Assembly: GCA_003247225.1 (NCBI GenBank) | Contig: QKAK01000028.1 | Location: 7,289 to 71,288, forward strand | Source of the DNA: Spirochaetota bacterium | GTDB lineage: Bacteria; Spirochaetota; Spirochaetia; Treponematales; UBA12059 | Direction: 5' to 3' | Length of the DNA: 64,000 nt | Shown: piece by piece, positions 7,156 through 51,527 of the stretch | How the letters are laid out: each line of letters begins with the position of its first letter | Position numbering within the stretch: position 1 is the stretch's first letter | The notes under the pieces: model-generated | Seen by the model: the letters and a program-made list of their open reading frames with translations, nothing else | Told to the model about the DNA's origin: nothing | Databases searched by the model: none | Program-made: the position numbers and the translations under genes

Positions 7156-7560
7156 CTAGAAAATATCGAGGGCGTCGGCGCTCTCTTCGGTCGCCGGTTC
7201 CGCGGGCTCGCCCGAGGGACCGGGTTCCAGGGCCTCGGGCTCTACCGCGGCCTCGGGTTCCGGCTCGGCGGGCGACGCCGCCTCGGCGGCCGGGGACGGC
7301 CGGGCCGCGCCCGAGGTCGCGGCCTCGTGTACCGCGTCCTCGAAGGAGTCGAGCTTGCGCAGGGCCTCTATGATGCCCTGCTCGATACGCGACTGATCCT
7401 TCTGGAATTCGGATACGAGGCCCTCGAGCTCGGCCACGCGGCCCTCGGCGGCCGAGAGCCCCGAGCGCATCGAGGCGTTCTCGGCGCGGAGCGCGGCGAT
7501 CAGCGCCACGGCCTTCTCTACGCGCGATTCGAGCGCGCGGACCTGCTCGAGACTGATCAT
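7156..7560 (-). CDS. coiled-coil protein, ZapB-like, with Pro/Glu/Ala-rich tail
   Basis: N-terminal heptad-rich MISLEQVRALESRVEKAVALIAALRAENASM... It is adjacent to zapA. Confidence 0.4.
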   Translation of the reverse strand: MISLEQVRALESRVEKAVALIAALRAENASMRSGLSAAEGRVAELEGLVSEFQKDQSRIEQGIIEALRKLDSFEDAVHEAATSGAARPSPAAEAASPAEPEPEAAVEPEALEPGPSGEPAEPATEESADALDIF

Positions 7561-7564
7561 GCGA

Positions 7565-7921
7565 TTAGGCCTGGGCCGACTTGACGCGCTCGACGATGGC
7601 CTTGAACGCGGCGGGGTCGCGGACGGCTATGTCGGCGAGCGCCTTGCGGTCGATGGCCATGTTCGCCTTGGCGGCGGCCTCGATGAAGCGGCTGTAGGTG
7701 ATGCCCTCGGCCCTGCACGCGGCGTTGATGCGCGTGATCCACAGGGCGCGGAAGGTCGGCTTCTTGTCGCGGCGATCGCGATAGGCGTACGACAGCGCCT
7801 TGGCGACCGCGTCCTTCGCGGTCTTATGGTTGGTGGACCTGCGTCCGTAGTATCCTTTGGCAAGCTTGAGGATCTTCTTGCGGTGATCCTTTCGCCTGGT
7901 GCCGTCAACTGCTCTGGGCAT
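7565..7921 (-). CDS. rplT: 50S ribosomal protein L20
   Basis: [29 protein letters not shown]... SD AAGGAG. Confidence 0.95.
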
Positions 7922-9479: not shown

Positions 9480-10154
9480 ATGTACGTGTTCGCCCTGCTT
9501 TCGATGCCGCTCTCGTTCATGGCCGTCTCGGCATGGACCTTCAGCGTCGGCGAGAAGAGCGGCCGCGCCTTCGCGCGCGGGCTCCTGTTCGGCCTGCCGG
9601 CGGTTTTCGTCTGGATCCTGCTCCGCCGGCTGCTGGCGCCCGTATGGGGTTCCCCGGCGTTAGGCGTCGTCTTCCTCGCGAGGTATTGGCTGCTCCCGCT
9701 CGGCTTGACGACGCTCGCGTACGCGGCGGCCGTCGGGTTCTCGAGCGTCGCGCGCGACGGCGAGTACGACCGCCTGGTATCGTTCTTCATGGGCTCGCTG
9801 TCCGTATTCGGCGCCGCGCACGCCATATCGTCATGGGGGGACCGAAGCGCGGTATTCGCCGTCTACTTGCCGCTGACGCTGGTCGCCACGGCCCTGGCCT
9901 TCCCGTACCTGCTCGAGGAAGCGGTCAAGGACGGCATGCCCGGAGCGCTCAAGCCGCTGGCCCTGGCGACGCTCGGCTGCGCGGCCGCGGCGTTCGGGAC
10001 GGCGTTCTTCTTCTTGAGGCTCGAATGGCTGGGGTACCTGGTGTCGGCGCTGTACGCGGGAGCCGCCGCATGGCTCGGACTGTCCAGGTTATTCCGCGCG
10101 CGGCGCGGCGCTTCATGGGACCAGCGGGGCTCGAACCCACCACCTACGGCTTAG
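9480..10154 (+). CDS. integral membrane protein, unknown function
   Basis: 224 aa with several hydrophobic spans (LLFGLPAVFVWILL, YWLLPLGLTTLAYAAAVGF and others). The last 39 nt run antisense into tRNA-Arg, so the true C-terminus is uncertain. Confidence 0.5.
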   Translation: MYVFALLSMPLSFMAVSAWTFSVGEKSGRAFARGLLFGLPAVFVWILLRRLLAPVWGSPALGVVFLARYWLLPLGLTTLAYAAAVGFSSVARDGEYDRLVSFFMGSLSVFGAAHAISSWGDRSAVFAVYLPLTLVATALAFPYLLEEAVKDGMPGALKPLALATLGCAAAAFGTAFFFLRLEWLGYLVSALYAGAAAWLGLSRLFRARRGASWDQRGSNPPPTA

Positions 10155-10189
10155 AAGGCCGTTGCTCTATCCAGATGAGCTATGATCCC
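10116..10189 (-). tRNA. tRNA-Arg (anticodon TCT)
   Basis: The reverse complement GGGATCATAGCTCATCTGGATAGAGCAACGGCCTTCTAAGCCGTAGGTGGTGGGTTCGAGCCCCGCTGGTCCCA folds as a cloverleaf with anticodon loop CTTCTAA. No CCA is encoded. Confidence 0.9.
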
Positions 10190-10194
10190 GGAGG

Positions 10195-10267
10195 TCGGGA
10201 CGGGGGGATTCGAACCCCCGATATCCAGCTCCCAAAGCTGGCGCCTTAGCCGCTAGGCTACGTCCCG
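10195..10267 (-). tRNA. tRNA-Pro (anticodon TGG)
   Basis: The reverse complement is CGGGACGTAGCCTAGCGGCTAAGGCGCCAGCTTTGGGAGCTGGATATCGGGGGTTCGAATCCCCCGTCCCGA. The anticodon loop is TTTGGGA and the T-loop is GGTTCGAATCC. Confidence 0.9.
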
Positions 10268-17238: not shown

Positions 17239-17290
17239 GGAACGATAGTACGCGATCGCCCGAAGGCTCTCAAGTATCGCCTGAGTACAG

Positions 17291-17347
17291 TCGTCGTCGG
17301 GGTACCGTCGTCGTCGGGGTACCGTCGTCGTCGGGGTACCGTCGTCG
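17291..17347. repeat. 17-bp tandem repeat x3.3 (TCGTCGTCGGGGTACCG)
   Basis: Three perfect units at 17291..17341 plus a partial unit, in the divergent lhr / membrane-protein intergenic region. Confidence 0.9.
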
Positions 17348-20354: not shown

Positions 20355-20882
20355 TCATTCGTCGCCGTGAGTACCGTCGTCGCCGTGAGTACCGTCGTCG
20401 CCGGCTCCTCGAGCGGAGTTCACGTTGGTTAGCGCTCCGACGGCCGCGCCGAGCGCCCGCTCGAGCAGGGCCAGGTCCGTTCCGGCCAGGTCCGAGAACG
20501 CCGCGCCTAGGGCCGCGCCGACCGTCGAGCGTATCTCCGCGAGCCGCTCCCCGGCTTCCGGGGCGAATCCGACGCGCACCTCCCTGCGGTCGCCGTCGGG
20601 ATTCCTCCTCCGCTCGACTAGGCCCTTCGCCTCGAGCCGGTCGACGAGGCCGACCGCGGTCGGCTTGCTCACGTACAGCTCGCGAGCGACGTCGCCGACC
20701 GTCATATCCCCCGCGTGGGCCAGCGCCTTGACGAGCAGCAGCTGCGGCAGGGTGAGTCCCGTAGGCGCCAGGCTCTCGCCGATCCGCGAGGTGAGCGCCG
20801 CGTTCAGCTCCCTGACGAGCGCGGCCACGCGGTATACGGCGCTACCGGGCCCGTCATCGGTTAGCTCACTAATGATTAACAT
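20355..20882 (-). CDS. MarR-family transcriptional regulator
   Basis: Winged-helix core LTLPQLLLVKALAHAGDMTVGDVARELYVSKPTAVGLVDRLEAKGLVERRRNPDGDRREV. The C-terminus carries a GDDGTH repeat. Confidence 0.85.
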   Translation of the reverse strand: MLIISELTDDGPGSAVYRVAALVRELNAALTSRIGESLAPTGLTLPQLLLVKALAHAGDMTVGDVARELYVSKPTAVGLVDRLEAKGLVERRRNPDGDRREVRVGFAPEAGERLAEIRSTVGAALGAAFSDLAGTDLALLERALGAAVGALTNVNSARGAGDDGTHGDDGTHGDE

Positions 20883-29357: not shown

Positions 29358-30191
29358 TTATTCGCCGATCTTGAATATCGCGCCGTACGGGTCCCACGGC
29401 TCCGACCGGGGCGACGCGCCTTCGATCGCATCCGGATCGAGCTCCAGGTGCTCGATGATCCATTCGCCGTCGTCTCCGGGGGCGATGATGGCCAGCCCGA
29501 CGATGGCCCGGGAGCCGCTATCGTCGGCGAAGGCGCGGAACCGGACGCTGGCGACCGGTCCGGGCCCGACGACCGGCGTCGCGAAGCGTACCCGGGCGAA
29601 CCGCAGCGGGAACGCGTCGCCGAATCGGGCCCGAGCCAGGGCGGCCGCCTCCGGTCCCATCGACCCGTACGGCGGCTCGCCCGATAGGAGGCCGCGCTCC
29701 AGCTCGAGCATGGCCTCGTCGCGAGCGGCGTCGGCCGGCTCGCCAGAGCCGGGGCCGTAGAGCTCGCCGAGCTCGAAATCGCCGGCCGGCGCCGCGTCGA
29801 AGGGCCGCTCGACGAGGCGGCGGTCGCTACCGGCCAGGCTCGCCGAGACGACCGCCTTGACGGCCTTCGCGCCCGTCCCGGCGGCCGGCGAGGCCTTGGG
29901 CGACGCCTTCATCGCTACCGGCTTGTCTGCGGGCTCGGCGCGCGCGGCGTCGGCGCGCGCGGCGTCGGCGCGTACGGCGTCGTCGCCGGGCTCGGGCTCG
30001 GCGCGCGCAGCGTCGTCGCGCGCAGCGTCGTCGCGCGCGACTGCGGCGCTAGCCTCGGCGCCGACGGCCGCCTCGGCCGGCGCTCGATCCGGCCGCTCGC
30101 GGCTCCTCGAGCAGGCCTGGGCGGAGACGGCGGCCGCCAGTACGATGGCGGCGATCATAATGCCGTATAGTCGAGATCGGCTCGCTTGCAT
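29358..30191 (-). CDS. putative lipoprotein with acidic Ala/Asp/Arg repeats
   Basis: Signal peptide MQASRSRLYGIMIAAIVLAAAVSAQAC, with a Cys after the hydrophobic core. Repeats DDAARDDAAR and ADAARADAAR. Confidence 0.5.
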   Translation of the reverse strand: MQASRSRLYGIMIAAIVLAAAVSAQACSRSRERPDRAPAEAAVGAEASAAVARDDAARDDAARAEPEPGDDAVRADAARADAARAEPADKPVAMKASPKASPAAGTGAKAVKAVVSASLAGSDRRLVERPFDAAPAGDFELGELYGPGSGEPADAARDEAMLELERGLLSGEPPYGSMGPEAAALARARFGDAFPLRFARVRFATPVVGPGPVASVRFRAFADDSGSRAIVGLAIIAPGDDGEWIIEHLELDPDAIEGASPRSEPWDPYGAIFKIGE

Positions 30192-30248
30192 CGTGGTATA
30201 GTATCCCCAGACCGAGCCGGTCGATCAACCGGTTCGGACGGAGGCACC

Positions 30249-48832: not shown

Positions 48833-50241
48833 CCGAGGATTTCGAGACCTTCACCCCCCGACGGGTCGTCGAGGAGCTGGACCGCTACATCATCGGGCAG
48901 GACAAGGCCAAGCGGGCCGTCGCCATAGCCCTGCGCAACCGCCTGCGGCGCAAGCTGCTGCCCGAGGCGGCCCGCGAGGAGATAGCCCCGAAGAACATCC
49001 TGATGATAGGCCCCACCGGCGTCGGCAAGACCGAGATAGCCAGGCGGCTGGCCAGGCTGTGCGGCGCTCCCTTCGTCAAGGTCGAGGCGACCAAGTACAC
49101 CGAGGTCGGCTACGTCGGCCGCGACGTCGAGTCCATGATACGCGACCTGATGGCCGCCGGCTACCGCATGGTCGTCGAGGAGATGACGGCCAAGGTCAGG
49201 GAGGACGCCGAGCGCCACGCCGAGGAGCGCCTGCTCGACCTGCTGCTGCCGGGGATAGGCCAGAAGCCCGTCGCCCCGGCGGCCCAGGCCGCCCCCAAGC
49301 CCGAGACCTGGGCGACCCCGGTCGCCGAGCCCCAGGCGGCGCTGCCCGCCCCGAAGGGCGCCGACACCCGCGAGAAGTTCCGCGCGATGCTGCGCGACGG
49401 CCTCCTCGACGACAAGGAGGTCGAGGTCCAGGTCTCCGCCCAGGCGGCGCCGCCGATCGAGCTGTTCGCCGGGCAGCAGATGGAGGAGCTCGAGTCGGCG
49501 TTTTCGGGCATCGCGAACATCTTCGGCGGCAAGAAGAAGAAGAAGACGGTCACCGTCAAGGAAGCCAGGCGCGTCATCCTCGAGGAGGAGCAGGACCGGC
49601 TCGTCGACAAGGACCGGGCCTCGGCCGAGGCCCGCGAGCGCGTCGAGCAGTCGGGCATCGTGTTCATCGACGAGATAGACAAGATAGCCACCCGCGAGGG
49701 GCGCTCGGGCGGCGGCATGGACGTCTCGCGCGAGGGCGTGCAGCGGGACATCCTGCCGATCGTCGAGGGCTCTAAGGTCAGCACCAAGTACGGGGTCGTC
49801 GACACGACCCATATCCTGTTCATCGCGGCCGGGGCGTTCAACGTGTCCAAGCCGTCCGACCTGATCCCCGAGCTGCAGGGGCGCTTCCCTATACGGGTGG
49901 AGCTCGAGGCGCTGTCGGCGTCCGACTTCGTGCGCATCCTGACCGAGCCCGAGAACGCCCTCGTCACGCAGTACACCCAGCTGCTCGGCACCGAGGGCGT
50001 GGGCCTGAGCTTCTCCCCCGCGGCCGTCGAGCGCCTCGCGGCGATAGCGGAGAAGGCGAACGCGCGCACCGAGAACATCGGGGCCAGGCGGCTGCACACG
50101 ATCATGGAGCGCCTGCTCGAGGAGCTGTCCTTCGAGGCGCCGGAGCGCGGCGGCGACTCGGTGGAGATAAGCGAGGCCTTCGTCGAGGAACGCTTCGAGG
50201 GCGTCTTCGAGAGCGAGGACCTCGCGAAGTTCATACTCTAG
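48829..50241 (+). CDS. hslU: ATP-dependent protease ATPase subunit HslU
   Basis: GTG start overlapping the hslV stop (GTGA). [47 protein letters not shown]. Confidence 0.95.
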
Positions 50242-50259
50242 GCGAAGTGAAATAGGTAA

Positions 50260-50418
50260 TTGAACCACGGAGACGCGGAGGCACGGAGTAGAATGAATAC
50301 GAAGGAGAATTTGAACCACGGAGTCACGGAGTAGGAGAACAAAGATGGATTGTATGATGGAATCCCATTCTCCACCTTCCTCGTCTTCATTCTCCGTGCC
50401 TTCGTGTCTCCGTGGTGA
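50260..50418. repeat. palindromic CACGGAGN-repeat element, copy 1 (hslU-flgB spacer)
   Basis: The left arm CCACGGAGACGCGGAGGCACGGAG (50265..50288) is the near-perfect reverse complement of the right arm CTCCGTGCCTTCGTGTCTCCGTGG (50392..50415). An extra half copy TTGAACCACGGAGTCACGGAGTAGGA lies at 50311..50336. Confidence 0.8.
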
Positions 50419-50426
50419 AAAAGCGT

Positions 50427-50453
50427 ATAAGCCCTGACGATATTGGCCGATAA
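50427..50453 (+). promoter_or_regulatory. sigma28 (FliA)-type promoter upstream of flgB
   Basis: ATAA (50427..50430), 15 nt, GCCGATAA (50446..50453). The -10 is an exact match to the TAAA-N15-GCCGATAA consensus. It lies 47 nt before the flgB ATG. Confidence 0.5.
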
Positions 50454-50500: not shown

Positions 50501-50920
50501 ATGCTCGAGAATACGACGTTCGGCAGGACGGTGGAGCTGTTGCAGCGCAGCATGGACGTGGCGTCCCTGCGCCACGAGGTCATAGGCAACAACATCGCCA
50601 ACGCCGAGGTGCCGAATTTCAAGCGATCGGAGATCAACTTCGAGTCGTCGCTGAAGCGGGCGATAGACTCCGAGAAGCGCGAGCCGAGGCTGCAGCTGGC
50701 GACCACGGAACCGGGCCACATCGCTTCGTGGAAGCGGGCCGACTGGCGCGACGTCGAACCGCGCAGGGTGCTCGACTACCTGTCGACGACCAAGAACAAC
50801 GGCAACAACGTCGACGCCGAGCAGGAGTTCATGGACTCGATGACGAACCAGCTGCGCTACACGCTGATGACCCAGGCCGCCGCGTTCGAATTCAACCAGG
50901 TCAACCAGGTCCTGAAATGA
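50501..50920 (+). CDS. flgB: flagellar basal-body rod protein FlgB
   Basis: RHEVIGNNIANAEVPNFKR and the C-terminal MTNQLRYTLMTQ pattern. Confidence 0.9.
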   Translation: MLENTTFGRTVELLQRSMDVASLRHEVIGNNIANAEVPNFKRSEINFESSLKRAIDSEKREPRLQLATTEPGHIASWKRADWRDVEPRRVLDYLSTTKNNGNNVDAEQEFMDSMTNQLRYTLMTQAAAFEFNQVNQVLK

Positions 50921-50948
50921 TAGCGGATTTGACGAACAGAGACGCAGA

Positions 50949-51041
50949 CCACGGAGGCACGAAGGCACGGAGTAGGAAAGGCCTGTCCCGTTTTTCCTTT
51001 CCTGCCTCTCCCTTATTCTCCGTGTCTCCGTGTCTCCGTGG
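50949..51041. repeat. palindromic CACGGAGN-repeat element, copy 2 (flgB-flgC spacer)
   Basis: The left arm CCACGGAGGCACGAAGGCACGGAG (50949..50972) pairs with the right arm CTCCGTGTCTCCGTGTCTCCGTGG (51018..51041). There is an inner hairpin AGGAAAGG / CCTTTCCT. Confidence 0.8.
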
Positions 51042-51068
51042 CGAAGCATTCTTACAGGGGGCTTTCTG

Positions 51069-51527
51069 ATGGGAATGTTCACGAGCATCAATATAGCGGC
51101 GAGCGGGATGACGGCGGAGCGGCTGCGCCAGGACGTCATCGCCGACAATATCGCTAACCAGTCGACGACCCGCACGCCCGAGGGCGGCGTGTTCAGGCGC
51201 AGCCGCGTGGTGCTGCGGCCGAAGACGGATACGCCGTACTTCAGGCTGCCGTTCCTGCCGGACCAGTGGGACGGCGGCGCCGGCCAGGGCGTGCGCGTGT
51301 CGGAGATCCAGAAGGACTACGCCGCCGAGACCAGGCTCGTCTACGATCCGACCCACCCGGACGCGATCAAGGCGGGGCCGCGGGCCGGCTACGTCGAGTA
51401 CCCGAACGTCAACGTGGTCACCGAGATGGTCGACCTGATATCCGCGTCGCGCGCCTACGAGGCGAACGCGGCGATAGCCAACGGCGCCAAGGCCATGTTC
51501 ATGAAGGCCTTGGAGATAGGACGGTAG
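51069..51527 (+). CDS. flgC: flagellar basal-body rod protein FlgC
   Basis: Internal ATG of ORF 51030..51527. MGMFTSINIAASGMTAERLRQDVIADNIAN; C-terminal MVDLISASRAYEANA. Confidence 0.9.
   Translation: MGMFTSINIAASGMTAERLRQDVIADNIANQSTTRTPEGGVFRRSRVVLRPKTDTPYFRLPFLPDQWDGGAGQGVRVSEIQKDYAAETRLVYDPTHPDAIKAGPRAGYVEYPNVNVVTEMVDLISASRAYEANAAIANGAKAMFMKALEIGR

Follow-up and report, generated by a model that had tools for sequence, protein, structure and literature searches.

Two palindromic elements were found in a 64-kb stretch of DNA (the window, to which all plain coordinates refer) from a G+C-rich (67.7%) spirochaete, one between hslU and flgB (element 1, 50260-50419) and the other between flgB and flgC (element 2, 50929-51041). 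Both hairpins probably belong, as non-autonomous copies without a gene, to a family of small palindromic insertion cassettes whose full-length form carries a gene for a GxxExxY (PDDEXK_3) protein of ~125 amino acids (aa). The cassettes are intergenic, begin a few nucleotides past a stop codon and are co-oriented with the host operon, so that they are read through by host transcription. The best reading of the window copies is that they are non-autonomous members similar to REPINs (doublets of repetitive extragenic palindromic, REP, sequences) or to miniature inverted-repeat transposable elements (MITEs). In the literature searched we found no prior description of this family or of the link between arms and putative nuclease gene, and no paper on the arm sequences or on the flanks of GxxExxY/PDDEXK_3/PF13366/TIGR04256 genes.

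The link to the GxxExxY gene rests on two sets of loci. Among the genome matches listed from a scan with the arm motif (described below), four loci held a ~124-aa open reading frame (ORF) between or beside the arms, and these ORFs encode the GxxExxY protein (PF13366 PDDEXK_3, 9.9e-42; TIGR04256, ~1e-44). An alignment of the four proteins yielded 80 GxxExxY loci from metagenomes, belonging to the subfamily that is at least 55% identical to the query clade. In 67 of the 80, tandem CRCNGAG units, spaced by 8 and sometimes by 9, were present upstream of the gene and their reverse complement downstream, and 79 of the 80 had an arm on at least one side; the flanking arms read TTCAC-(CRCNGAG-N)x3 and its reverse complement. 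The unit varied among the loci, CACGGAG (24), CACAGAG (18), CGCAGAG (16), CGCGGAG (8) and CGCCGAG (6) being the main variants besides rarer others, and yet both arms carried the identical variant at 48 of 67 loci, against 13 expected. When covariation was examined in the 30 loci with 23-nt arms, 95% of the cells were paired and 74 double-sided changes were counted, against 30 +/- 6 in shuffles (0 of 500 shuffles were as high), the three units of an arm and all six octamers of an element changing in concert. The nearest protein neighbour had the same unit type in 41 of 72 cases, against 16.7 expected. As the arm variants match each other and track the relatedness of the proteins, gene and arms form one evolutionary unit. 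A few protein residues were associated with the unit type, for example at alignment column 39, where His tends to go with CAC and Ser with CGC units, these associations being weak and possibly phylogenetic.

Gene-less hairpins outnumbered gene-bearing ones in the genome sample by about 66 to 4 of the 70 surveyed, and no remnants of the GxxExxY gene were found inside the gene-less elements. Neither an ORF nor a tblastn match for GxxExxY was present in element 1, in element 2 or anywhere else in the window, and we consider the two elements gene-less derivatives for this reason. The original prediction had described element 1 as a ~155-bp palindrome after the hslU stop, with arms made of three tandem 8-bp units that are reverse complements of each other, an extra half copy inside and a related copy downstream. 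All of these features are present in the sequence, the extra half copy lying at 50311-50331 and the related copy being element 2. It had also called the element non-coding, which holds for this copy, which has no ORF; homologous arms elsewhere do enclose a gene. The parts of the two elements, none of which was assigned to a strand, are as follows.

50260..50288, no strand: element 1 outer 5' arm, TTGAAC + CACGGAG-A-CGCGGAG-G-CACGGAG, three 8-bp units, fitting the family consensus aaTTcAC-(CACGGAG-R)x3.
50289..50310, no strand: element 1 inner stem extension, purine-rich (TAGAATGAATACGAAGGAGAAT), pairing with 50367-50391 according to inverted repeats and the minimum-free-energy fold.
50311..50331, no strand: element 1 extra second 5' arm TTGAACCACGGAGTCACGGAG (TTGAAC + CACGGAG-T-CACGGAG), called from direct and inverted repeats, with alternative pairing to 50400-50421.
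50332..50366, no strand: element 1 core or loop, A+T-richer, without ORF and without GxxExxY remnant.
50367..50391, no strand: element 1 inner extension, pyrimidine-rich (ATTCTCCACCTTCCTCGTCTTCATT), from inverted repeats and the predicted fold.
50392..50419, no strand: element 1 3' arm, CTCCGTG-C-CTTCGTG-T-CTCCGTG-G + TGAA.
50929..50948, no strand: element 2 degenerate extra 5' arm (TTGACGAACAGAGACGCAGA), 75% identical to 50260-50279.
50949..50972, no strand: element 2 5' arm, C + CACGGAG-G-CACGAAG-G-CACGGAG.
50973..51017, no strand: element 2 interior, purine-rich then pyrimidine-rich, without ORF.
51018..51041, no strand: element 2 3' arm, CTCCGTG-T-CTCCGTG-T-CTCCGTG-G.

Over 24 nt the arms of element 1 form 22 Watson-Crick and 2 G.T pairs, and its inverted repeat reaches 42 nt per arm at 79% complementarity (50264-50305 with 50375-50416), while the arms of element 2 (50949-72 and 51018-41) are 88% complementary. 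Arms of three octamers (CRCNGAG-N) with a reverse-complement partner are located at 50266-50288 with 50392-50414 and at 50950-50972 with 51018-51040, and Tandem Repeats Finder (TRF) called period-8 arrays in the arms. The double unit CACGGAGNCACGGAG, allowing at most one mismatch, occurs nine times in the 64 kb, and because all nine matches fall inside the two elements the arm repeats are not due to chance. The terminal TTCAC...GTGAA of the family is matched partially in both copies, the outer flanks being TTGAAC (left) and GGTGAA (right) in element 1 and GCAGAC (left) and GGCGAA (right) in element 2. Folding of the region, a check named in the original prediction, gave structures far more stable than those of shuffled sequences: -82.2 kcal/mol for the predicted RNA fold of element 1 (z = -8.6, 0 of 200 shuffles as good) and -65.9 kcal/mol for that of element 2 (z = -4.5).

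We looked for the arms in other genomes by an exact-pattern scan with the arm motif CCACGGAGNCRCGRAGNCACGGAG, using one genome per species, for which ~0.3 chance matches are expected; it returned at least 120 stretches. Among the matches listed, at least 119 loci on genome contigs belong to the family, so the element recurs widely and is not confined to this site. The carriers among these matches cover about ten phyla and include Planctomycetota, Acidobacteriota, Verrucomicrobiota/Lentisphaerae, Chloroflexota, Nitrospirota, Myxococcota, Geobacter, Ignavibacteriota, Sumerlaeota and Spirochaetota. One match (L089, Embleya) was excluded, since it consists of CACGGAGC simply repeated in tandem and has no partner arm. 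A typical element reads aaTTcAC-(CACGGAG-R)x3, 15-500 nt, (Y-CTCCGTG)x3-GTGaa, and 70 non-redundant hairpins measured 52-559 nt. Between genomes the interiors are unrelated and only the octamer arms are common, while copies inside one genome share further terminal and interior similarity, as in locus L083, where four copies lie in 8 kb and all end in GGAGAATTCAC. Another Spirochaetota metagenome-assembled genome (MAG) has, at an unrelated locus (L111), a 3' arm identical over 24 nt to that of element 1. Doubled or nested arms, like those of element 1, were also noticed in L083, L088, L162 and L184. Nested double arms whose inner 9-nt units are in frame with an ORF and encode (T-E-x)n were observed in L088 (7239-7768), L162, L184, L168 and L169.

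The arm motif was also found in 39 stretches of IMG/VR viral contigs, some of them densely loaded, with about a dozen hairpins on one 42-kb contig; no GxxExxY gene was present in the viral-contig stretches retrieved. These contigs could be vectors between phyla or host DNA mislabelled as viral. Dense CACGGAG hairpins, up to about one per 2-3 kb, were seen in the predicted viral contigs L227, L232, L242 (IMGVR_UViG_3300036790_000817), L219 and L221. Hairpins with 3 x 8-mer arms built from unrelated units (TCATCGGG, TGGATGGT, AACCGCCA, CCACCAAG and CGATGGGG) were noticed at L043:961-1094, L059:5992-6112, L091:5438-5547 and 7464-7611, and L113:274-420, which points to octamer-repeat palindromes as a broader class in these genomes.

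The host region of the window has, by Pfam, the gene order topA, xerC, hslV, hslU, element 1, flgB, element 2, flgC, and the homologues of its FlgC are named Spirochaetota, Spirochaetes and Treponema. The host features next to the elements are given below.

48850..50241, + strand: hslU (AAA+ ATPase), the upstream host gene, stop codon at 50239-50241, Pfam AAA_2 1.5e-34, with orthologous loci L121-L126 and L207-L213.
50446..50453, + strand: -10 box GCCGATAA of the sigma-28-type promoter upstream of flgB, a host feature outside the element, conserved in relatives.
50501..50920, + strand: flgB, Pfam Flg_bb_rod, identical protein on 22 contigs.
51069..51527, + strand: flgC, beginning 27 nt past element 2 with a GGGGG Shine-Dalgarno-like run before it, Pfam Flg_bb_rod and Flg_bbr_C, homologues named FlgC of Spirochaetota.

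The palindrome of element 1 starts 18 nt past the hslU stop and the -10 box follows ~27 nt downstream of it, while element 2 begins 8 nt (counting the degenerate arm) or 28 nt past the flgB stop. Comparison of the orthologous hslU-flgB spacers, which had been put forward as a check, speaks for insertion. In relatives whose FlgC is 86-91% identical the hslU-flgB spacer measures 65-163 nt and has no hairpin, and the flgB-flgC spacer, with AGGAG as its Shine-Dalgarno sequence, is 11-14 nt long, or 50 nt in the one lineage of L212/L213. As the spacers of the relatives are short and element-free, the elements were gained after the split from them, and on this spacer comparison both are lineage-specific gains of ~135-150 nt. 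The sigma-28-type promoter claimed in front of flgB is supported, since its -10 box is kept as GCCGATA/CCGATA in all relatives examined and in the divergent allele described next (L122, L207-L213), despite the unconserved spacer around it.

Six loci of the same species (L121-L126) were retrieved, with genes ~97% identical to those of the window; the ordinary fliE-fliF spacer is likewise ~97% conserved among them. Besides the window genome, the MAGs of the species include GCA_024233765.1, GCA_035391325.1 and GCA_035447965.1. L121 and L126 carry the same CACGGAG elements as the window. In two MAGs (L123:2844-2943 and L124:2844-2943) a run of N stands exactly at element 1, probably because short-read assembly fails at the repeat or masks it. 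In the remaining two (L122 and L125, GCA_024233765.1) both spacers hold another octamer hairpin, whose common arm is CGAAGAGGATACGAGGATA, so that the species has CACGGAG-type and GAGGATAC-type hairpins. These alternative hairpins, also purine-rich/pyrimidine-rich, occupy L122:2762-2945 and L122:3421-3567 (the same in L125), orthologous to window 50242-50445 and 50921-51068, and the spacers are 56-58% identical to those of the window, the divergence setting in at the stop codon and reaching as far as the -10 box or the start codon. Decay or deamination of a CACGGAG allele was ruled out as the origin of the L122 allele, the differences not being transitions. The alternative arm GAAGAGGATACGAGGATA of L122 was found neither in the viral contigs nor in any other locus retrieved.

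The GxxExxY ORF had the orientation of the upstream gene in 42 of 45 cases and that of the downstream gene in 43 of 46, with the first unit mostly 5-33 nt past the upstream stop codon, these orientation and distance counts being somewhat inflated by ~ten loci that represent one orthologous site in Terriglobia. At that site (L127-L134, L136, L140, L152 and L030:3540-3990) the cassette follows a gene ending in ...EFKVGVLQT*, whose stop overlaps an ATG or GTG (ATGATTCAC), and the ORF runs through the 5' arm. Annotated N-termini such as MI(S)HHGDTE arise because the 5' arm is read as coding. Gene-less hairpins lay in 28 tandem, 6 convergent and, rarely, 3 divergent contexts. In 25 of the 28 tandem contexts they began 5-29 nt past the stop codon, while the distance to the next start codon was broader, up to 192 nt; these distances rest on crude ORF calling, some called starts overlapping the arm.

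The original prediction had offered three roles for element 1, namely a terminator or insulator, an RNA stability element and a MITE-like insertion. The first two can be put together as a host-selected RNA element that terminates or insulates hslVU, protects the upstream mRNA from 3' exonucleases, or provides an RNase III site uncoupling the cistrons, which we consider unlikely. The predicted folds are very stable, the sites lie a few nucleotides past stop codons, element 1 sits exactly between the hslU stop and the flgB promoter, and both alleles of the species have long hairpins in the same two spacers, all of which would suit such a role. Set against this, no T-run follows either stem (the elements are followed by GGTGAAAAAGCG and GGCGAAGCATTC) and a terminator scan called no site at either, so that an intrinsic (Rho-independent) terminator, a G+C-rich stem with a T/U run directly behind it, was rejected, and the window elements are not canonical terminators. 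Element 2 moreover lies inside the flgB-flgC junction, tightly coupled in relatives, and a terminator reading of it is disfavoured because termination between flgB and flgC would be harmful. The terminator or insulator option is therefore not supported by the sequence. In addition, closely related species do without either element, the exact octamer kept across about ten phyla is needless for such RNA roles, and no Rfam family was matched: in E-value mode the window and eight other loci gave only generic miRNA-precursor hairpin noise, far below gathering scores.

We argued that if the stems are kept as RNA, G.U should prevail among their mismatches as read on the transcribed strand. No such bias was seen: 30 G.U stood against 28 A.C where the orientation of the ORF was known, and 30 against 20 in gene-less copies in tandem contexts. 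An RNA stability element is conceivable but unlikely, and nothing points to RNA-level selection. The unit core C-C-GAG is invariant, and as the units evolve concertedly around it, sites at the DNA level or a DNA hairpin or cruciform are favoured over a selected RNA structure; judged from the sequences, the arms appear to fit repeated protein-recognition sites on DNA, or such a hairpin or cruciform, better. Being transcribed as a strong stem may make the insert harmless inside operons.

Improbable, too, is that the arms were written in place by a templated or concerted process (gene conversion, hairpin-templated repair or repeat addition at breaks), the GxxExxY gene being a later lodger. It would suit the finding that two strains with 97% identical genes differ in the arm family of both spacers, yet have elements of similar length whose flanks and loop can still be aligned weakly, as well as the joint change of the six octamers of an element and the other 3 x 8-mer hairpin families with unrelated units in the same genomes. 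Such writing has no known enzyme or template, however, arms and gene are co-inherited, and the spacers of relatives are truly short, so ~135-150 nt came as new DNA.

Membership in a classical REP/REPIN family moved by RAYT, the REP-associated tyrosine transposase of the IS200/IS605-like type, is very improbable. Short palindromic extragenic repeats past genes, the absence of target duplications and sequence variants specific to the genome are shared, and the window copy happens to hold GTAG just inside the arm (CACGGAGTAG). The tags GTAG and CGTC define two REP super-families (PMC3733652), but the family consensus has neither at the stem end, its arms are three tandem octamers instead of one palindrome of 20-40 bp, and the enclosed gene encodes a protein of predicted PD-(D/E)XK fold (PF13366/TIGR04256) instead of an HUH/Y1 enzyme. 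REP membership was rejected, the outer-flank logo having no GTAG/CGTC tag and no RAYT gene being found. Equally remote is a role of the repeats in regulating the flagellar operon as an array that binds a protein, such as a sponge for CsrA. Flagellar genes of spirochaetes are under CsrA control, the A-N-GGA core of its binding sites is part of every CACGGAG unit, and the 5' arms, located in a flagellar gene cluster, hold five to six ACGGA motifs, yet these GGA motifs are locked in a long stem and not in loops, the same elements adjoin unrelated genes in about ten phyla, the sister units CACAGAG, CGCAGAG and CGCCGAG have no GGA, and related spirochaetes have no elements.

The MITE-like insertion, the third of the proposed roles, is supported by its absence from the spacers of relatives, by the cross-phylum family and by the gene-bearing full-length members. 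Classical MITE features are present only in part, as no target duplication and no transposase were found. Like the Correia elements of Neisseria and the ERIC (enterobacterial repetitive intergenic consensus) elements of enterobacteria, the hairpins are 50-250 bp long, have terminal inverted repeats and several copies, are intergenic and co-transcribed with their neighbours, can form long RNA hairpins, and their gene-less derivatives outnumber the gene-bearing ones. Unlike these, they show no detected target-site duplication, no canonical transposase in the full-length cassette and interiors unconserved between genomes. The only gene that shares the inverted repeats is the GxxExxY nuclease-fold gene, and no parent insertion sequence with a transposase was seen.

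By analogy, the closest known system is REPIN/RAYT, in which REP doublets go with a single-copy transposase. Common to both are short palindromic extragenic repeats, many per genome, without target duplications, a single associated gene flanked by inverted repeats and a lineage-specific repeat that tracks the gene. The cassettes differ in that their protein is a ~125-aa GxxExxY protein of predicted PD-(D/E)XK fold and not an HUH/Y1 transposase, their arms are three tandem 8-bp units without GTAG or CGTC tag, their gene usually exists in several copies, has no promoter and lies within host operons in the operon's orientation, and their arm sequence is common across phyla. In the intervening sequences (IVS) of 23S rRNA of the Leptospira type, with the four-helix-bundle protein 'S23p', a small ORF of unknown function is bracketed by inverted repeats, which form a long stem in the transcript and make the insertion tolerable to the host RNA. 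The cassettes resemble them in this bracketing, but their host site is an intercistronic spacer of mRNA and not rRNA, the protein family is another one, and excision by RNase III would be hypothetical for them. Free-standing homing endonuclease genes (among them PD-(D/E)XK types like I-Ssp6803I) and integron cassettes are likewise promoter-less selfish small genes between host genes in the same orientation, and an imperfect palindrome (the attC hairpin) marks the end of an integron cassette. The GxxExxY cassettes, on the other hand, have arms on both sides, tandem octamers, many unrelated target sites, no integrase and no cassette arrays.

GxxExxY proteins form a large family, with 31,651 representatives at 50% clustering (E <= 0.001), and PDDEXK_3 is listed as being of unknown function, with multiple transfers between divisions (PMC3424549). 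A PDB sequence search and the PADLOC defence models gave no match. The AlphaFold (AF2) model has a pLDDT of 94, and its best fold matches in PDB are the Hjc Holliday-junction resolvase, Cas4 SSO0001, lambda exonuclease and tRNA-splicing endonucleases, all of them weak (E ~0.01, TM ~0.5). As a lead only, these matches hint that GxxExxY might be a small nuclease reading structured DNA. Some representatives (P0241-P0255) are 260-295 aa long and have two full domains, and represent either fusions in tandem or a pair of neighbouring cassettes annotated as a single gene.

We infer that the putative nuclease mobilises the arms. The octamers would be binding sites of the encoded nuclease, which may cut at or near the arms or at their hairpin or cruciform, and host repair would then copy the unit to new sites or into gene-less copies, these being mobilised in trans as REPINs are by RAYTs. 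The window copies would be passengers, whose stem could fold the ~135-150 nt insert out of the hslU 3' untranslated region (UTR) and the flgB-flgC junction, limiting polar damage.

Several points weigh against the cassette reading. Simple insertion does not account for the coordinated exchange of one arm family for another at the two sites in a single species. No mobility event was directly observed and no exact pair of empty and filled sites was found within one species; the window itself has no GxxExxY gene. Flanking duplications, which the original prediction had proposed to look for, were not found: 50 of 70 elements had no direct repeat at the boundary and the remainder were at chance level. 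The cassette at one orthologous site in Terriglobia indicates that it can be stably inherited rather than mobile, and an equally good reading of the association is that the hairpins came first and the gene homed into them. The metagenome sample covers only one GxxExxY subfamily, the fold matches of the protein are weak and its catalytic activity is putative.

It is possible, though we hold it only tentatively, that the GxxExxY gene and its octamer arms form an unrecognised class of self-propagating mini-cassettes, in which a small structure- or sequence-specific PD-(D/E)XK nuclease would recognise its own arms and move the unit to sites just past stop codons inside operons. There the unit would be expressed by read-through, with the stem folding the insert out of the mRNA. 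Large populations of gene-less hairpins would be left in ten or more phyla as well as viral contigs, and one arm family could take the place of another at the same sites in a species. With the covarying octamer arms as a DNA partner, the link would provide a first concrete and testable hypothesis on the target of GxxExxY proteins. It would also account for conspicuous intergenic hairpins that break metagenome assemblies (as at the N-runs of L123 and L124) and for the odd 'HHGDTE...' N-termini that result when gene callers translate the arms. If the nuclease does move the arms, this would be a REPIN-like system on another enzyme fold, with cross-phylum reach and living inside operons. For the hslU-flgB-flgC region the message is simpler, the two hairpins there probably being recent passengers and not conserved regulators of the flagellar operon.

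Other repeats were noticed in the window away from the two elements. A G+C-rich tandem repeat of palindromic character, with periods of 15 and 63 (~2 copies of 63 nt), occupies 29930-30060 and falls within a minus-strand ORF of high G+C at third codon positions (GC3) at 29358-30224. Near-perfect tandem repeats were observed at 17285-17347 (17-nt unit x3.7, 97% identity) and at 20359-20403 (18-nt unit x2.5, 100%), both containing a GTACCGTCGTCG-like motif. Two adjacent tRNA genes on the minus strand at 10116-10267 were the sole matches in the window to pass the Rfam gathering score.

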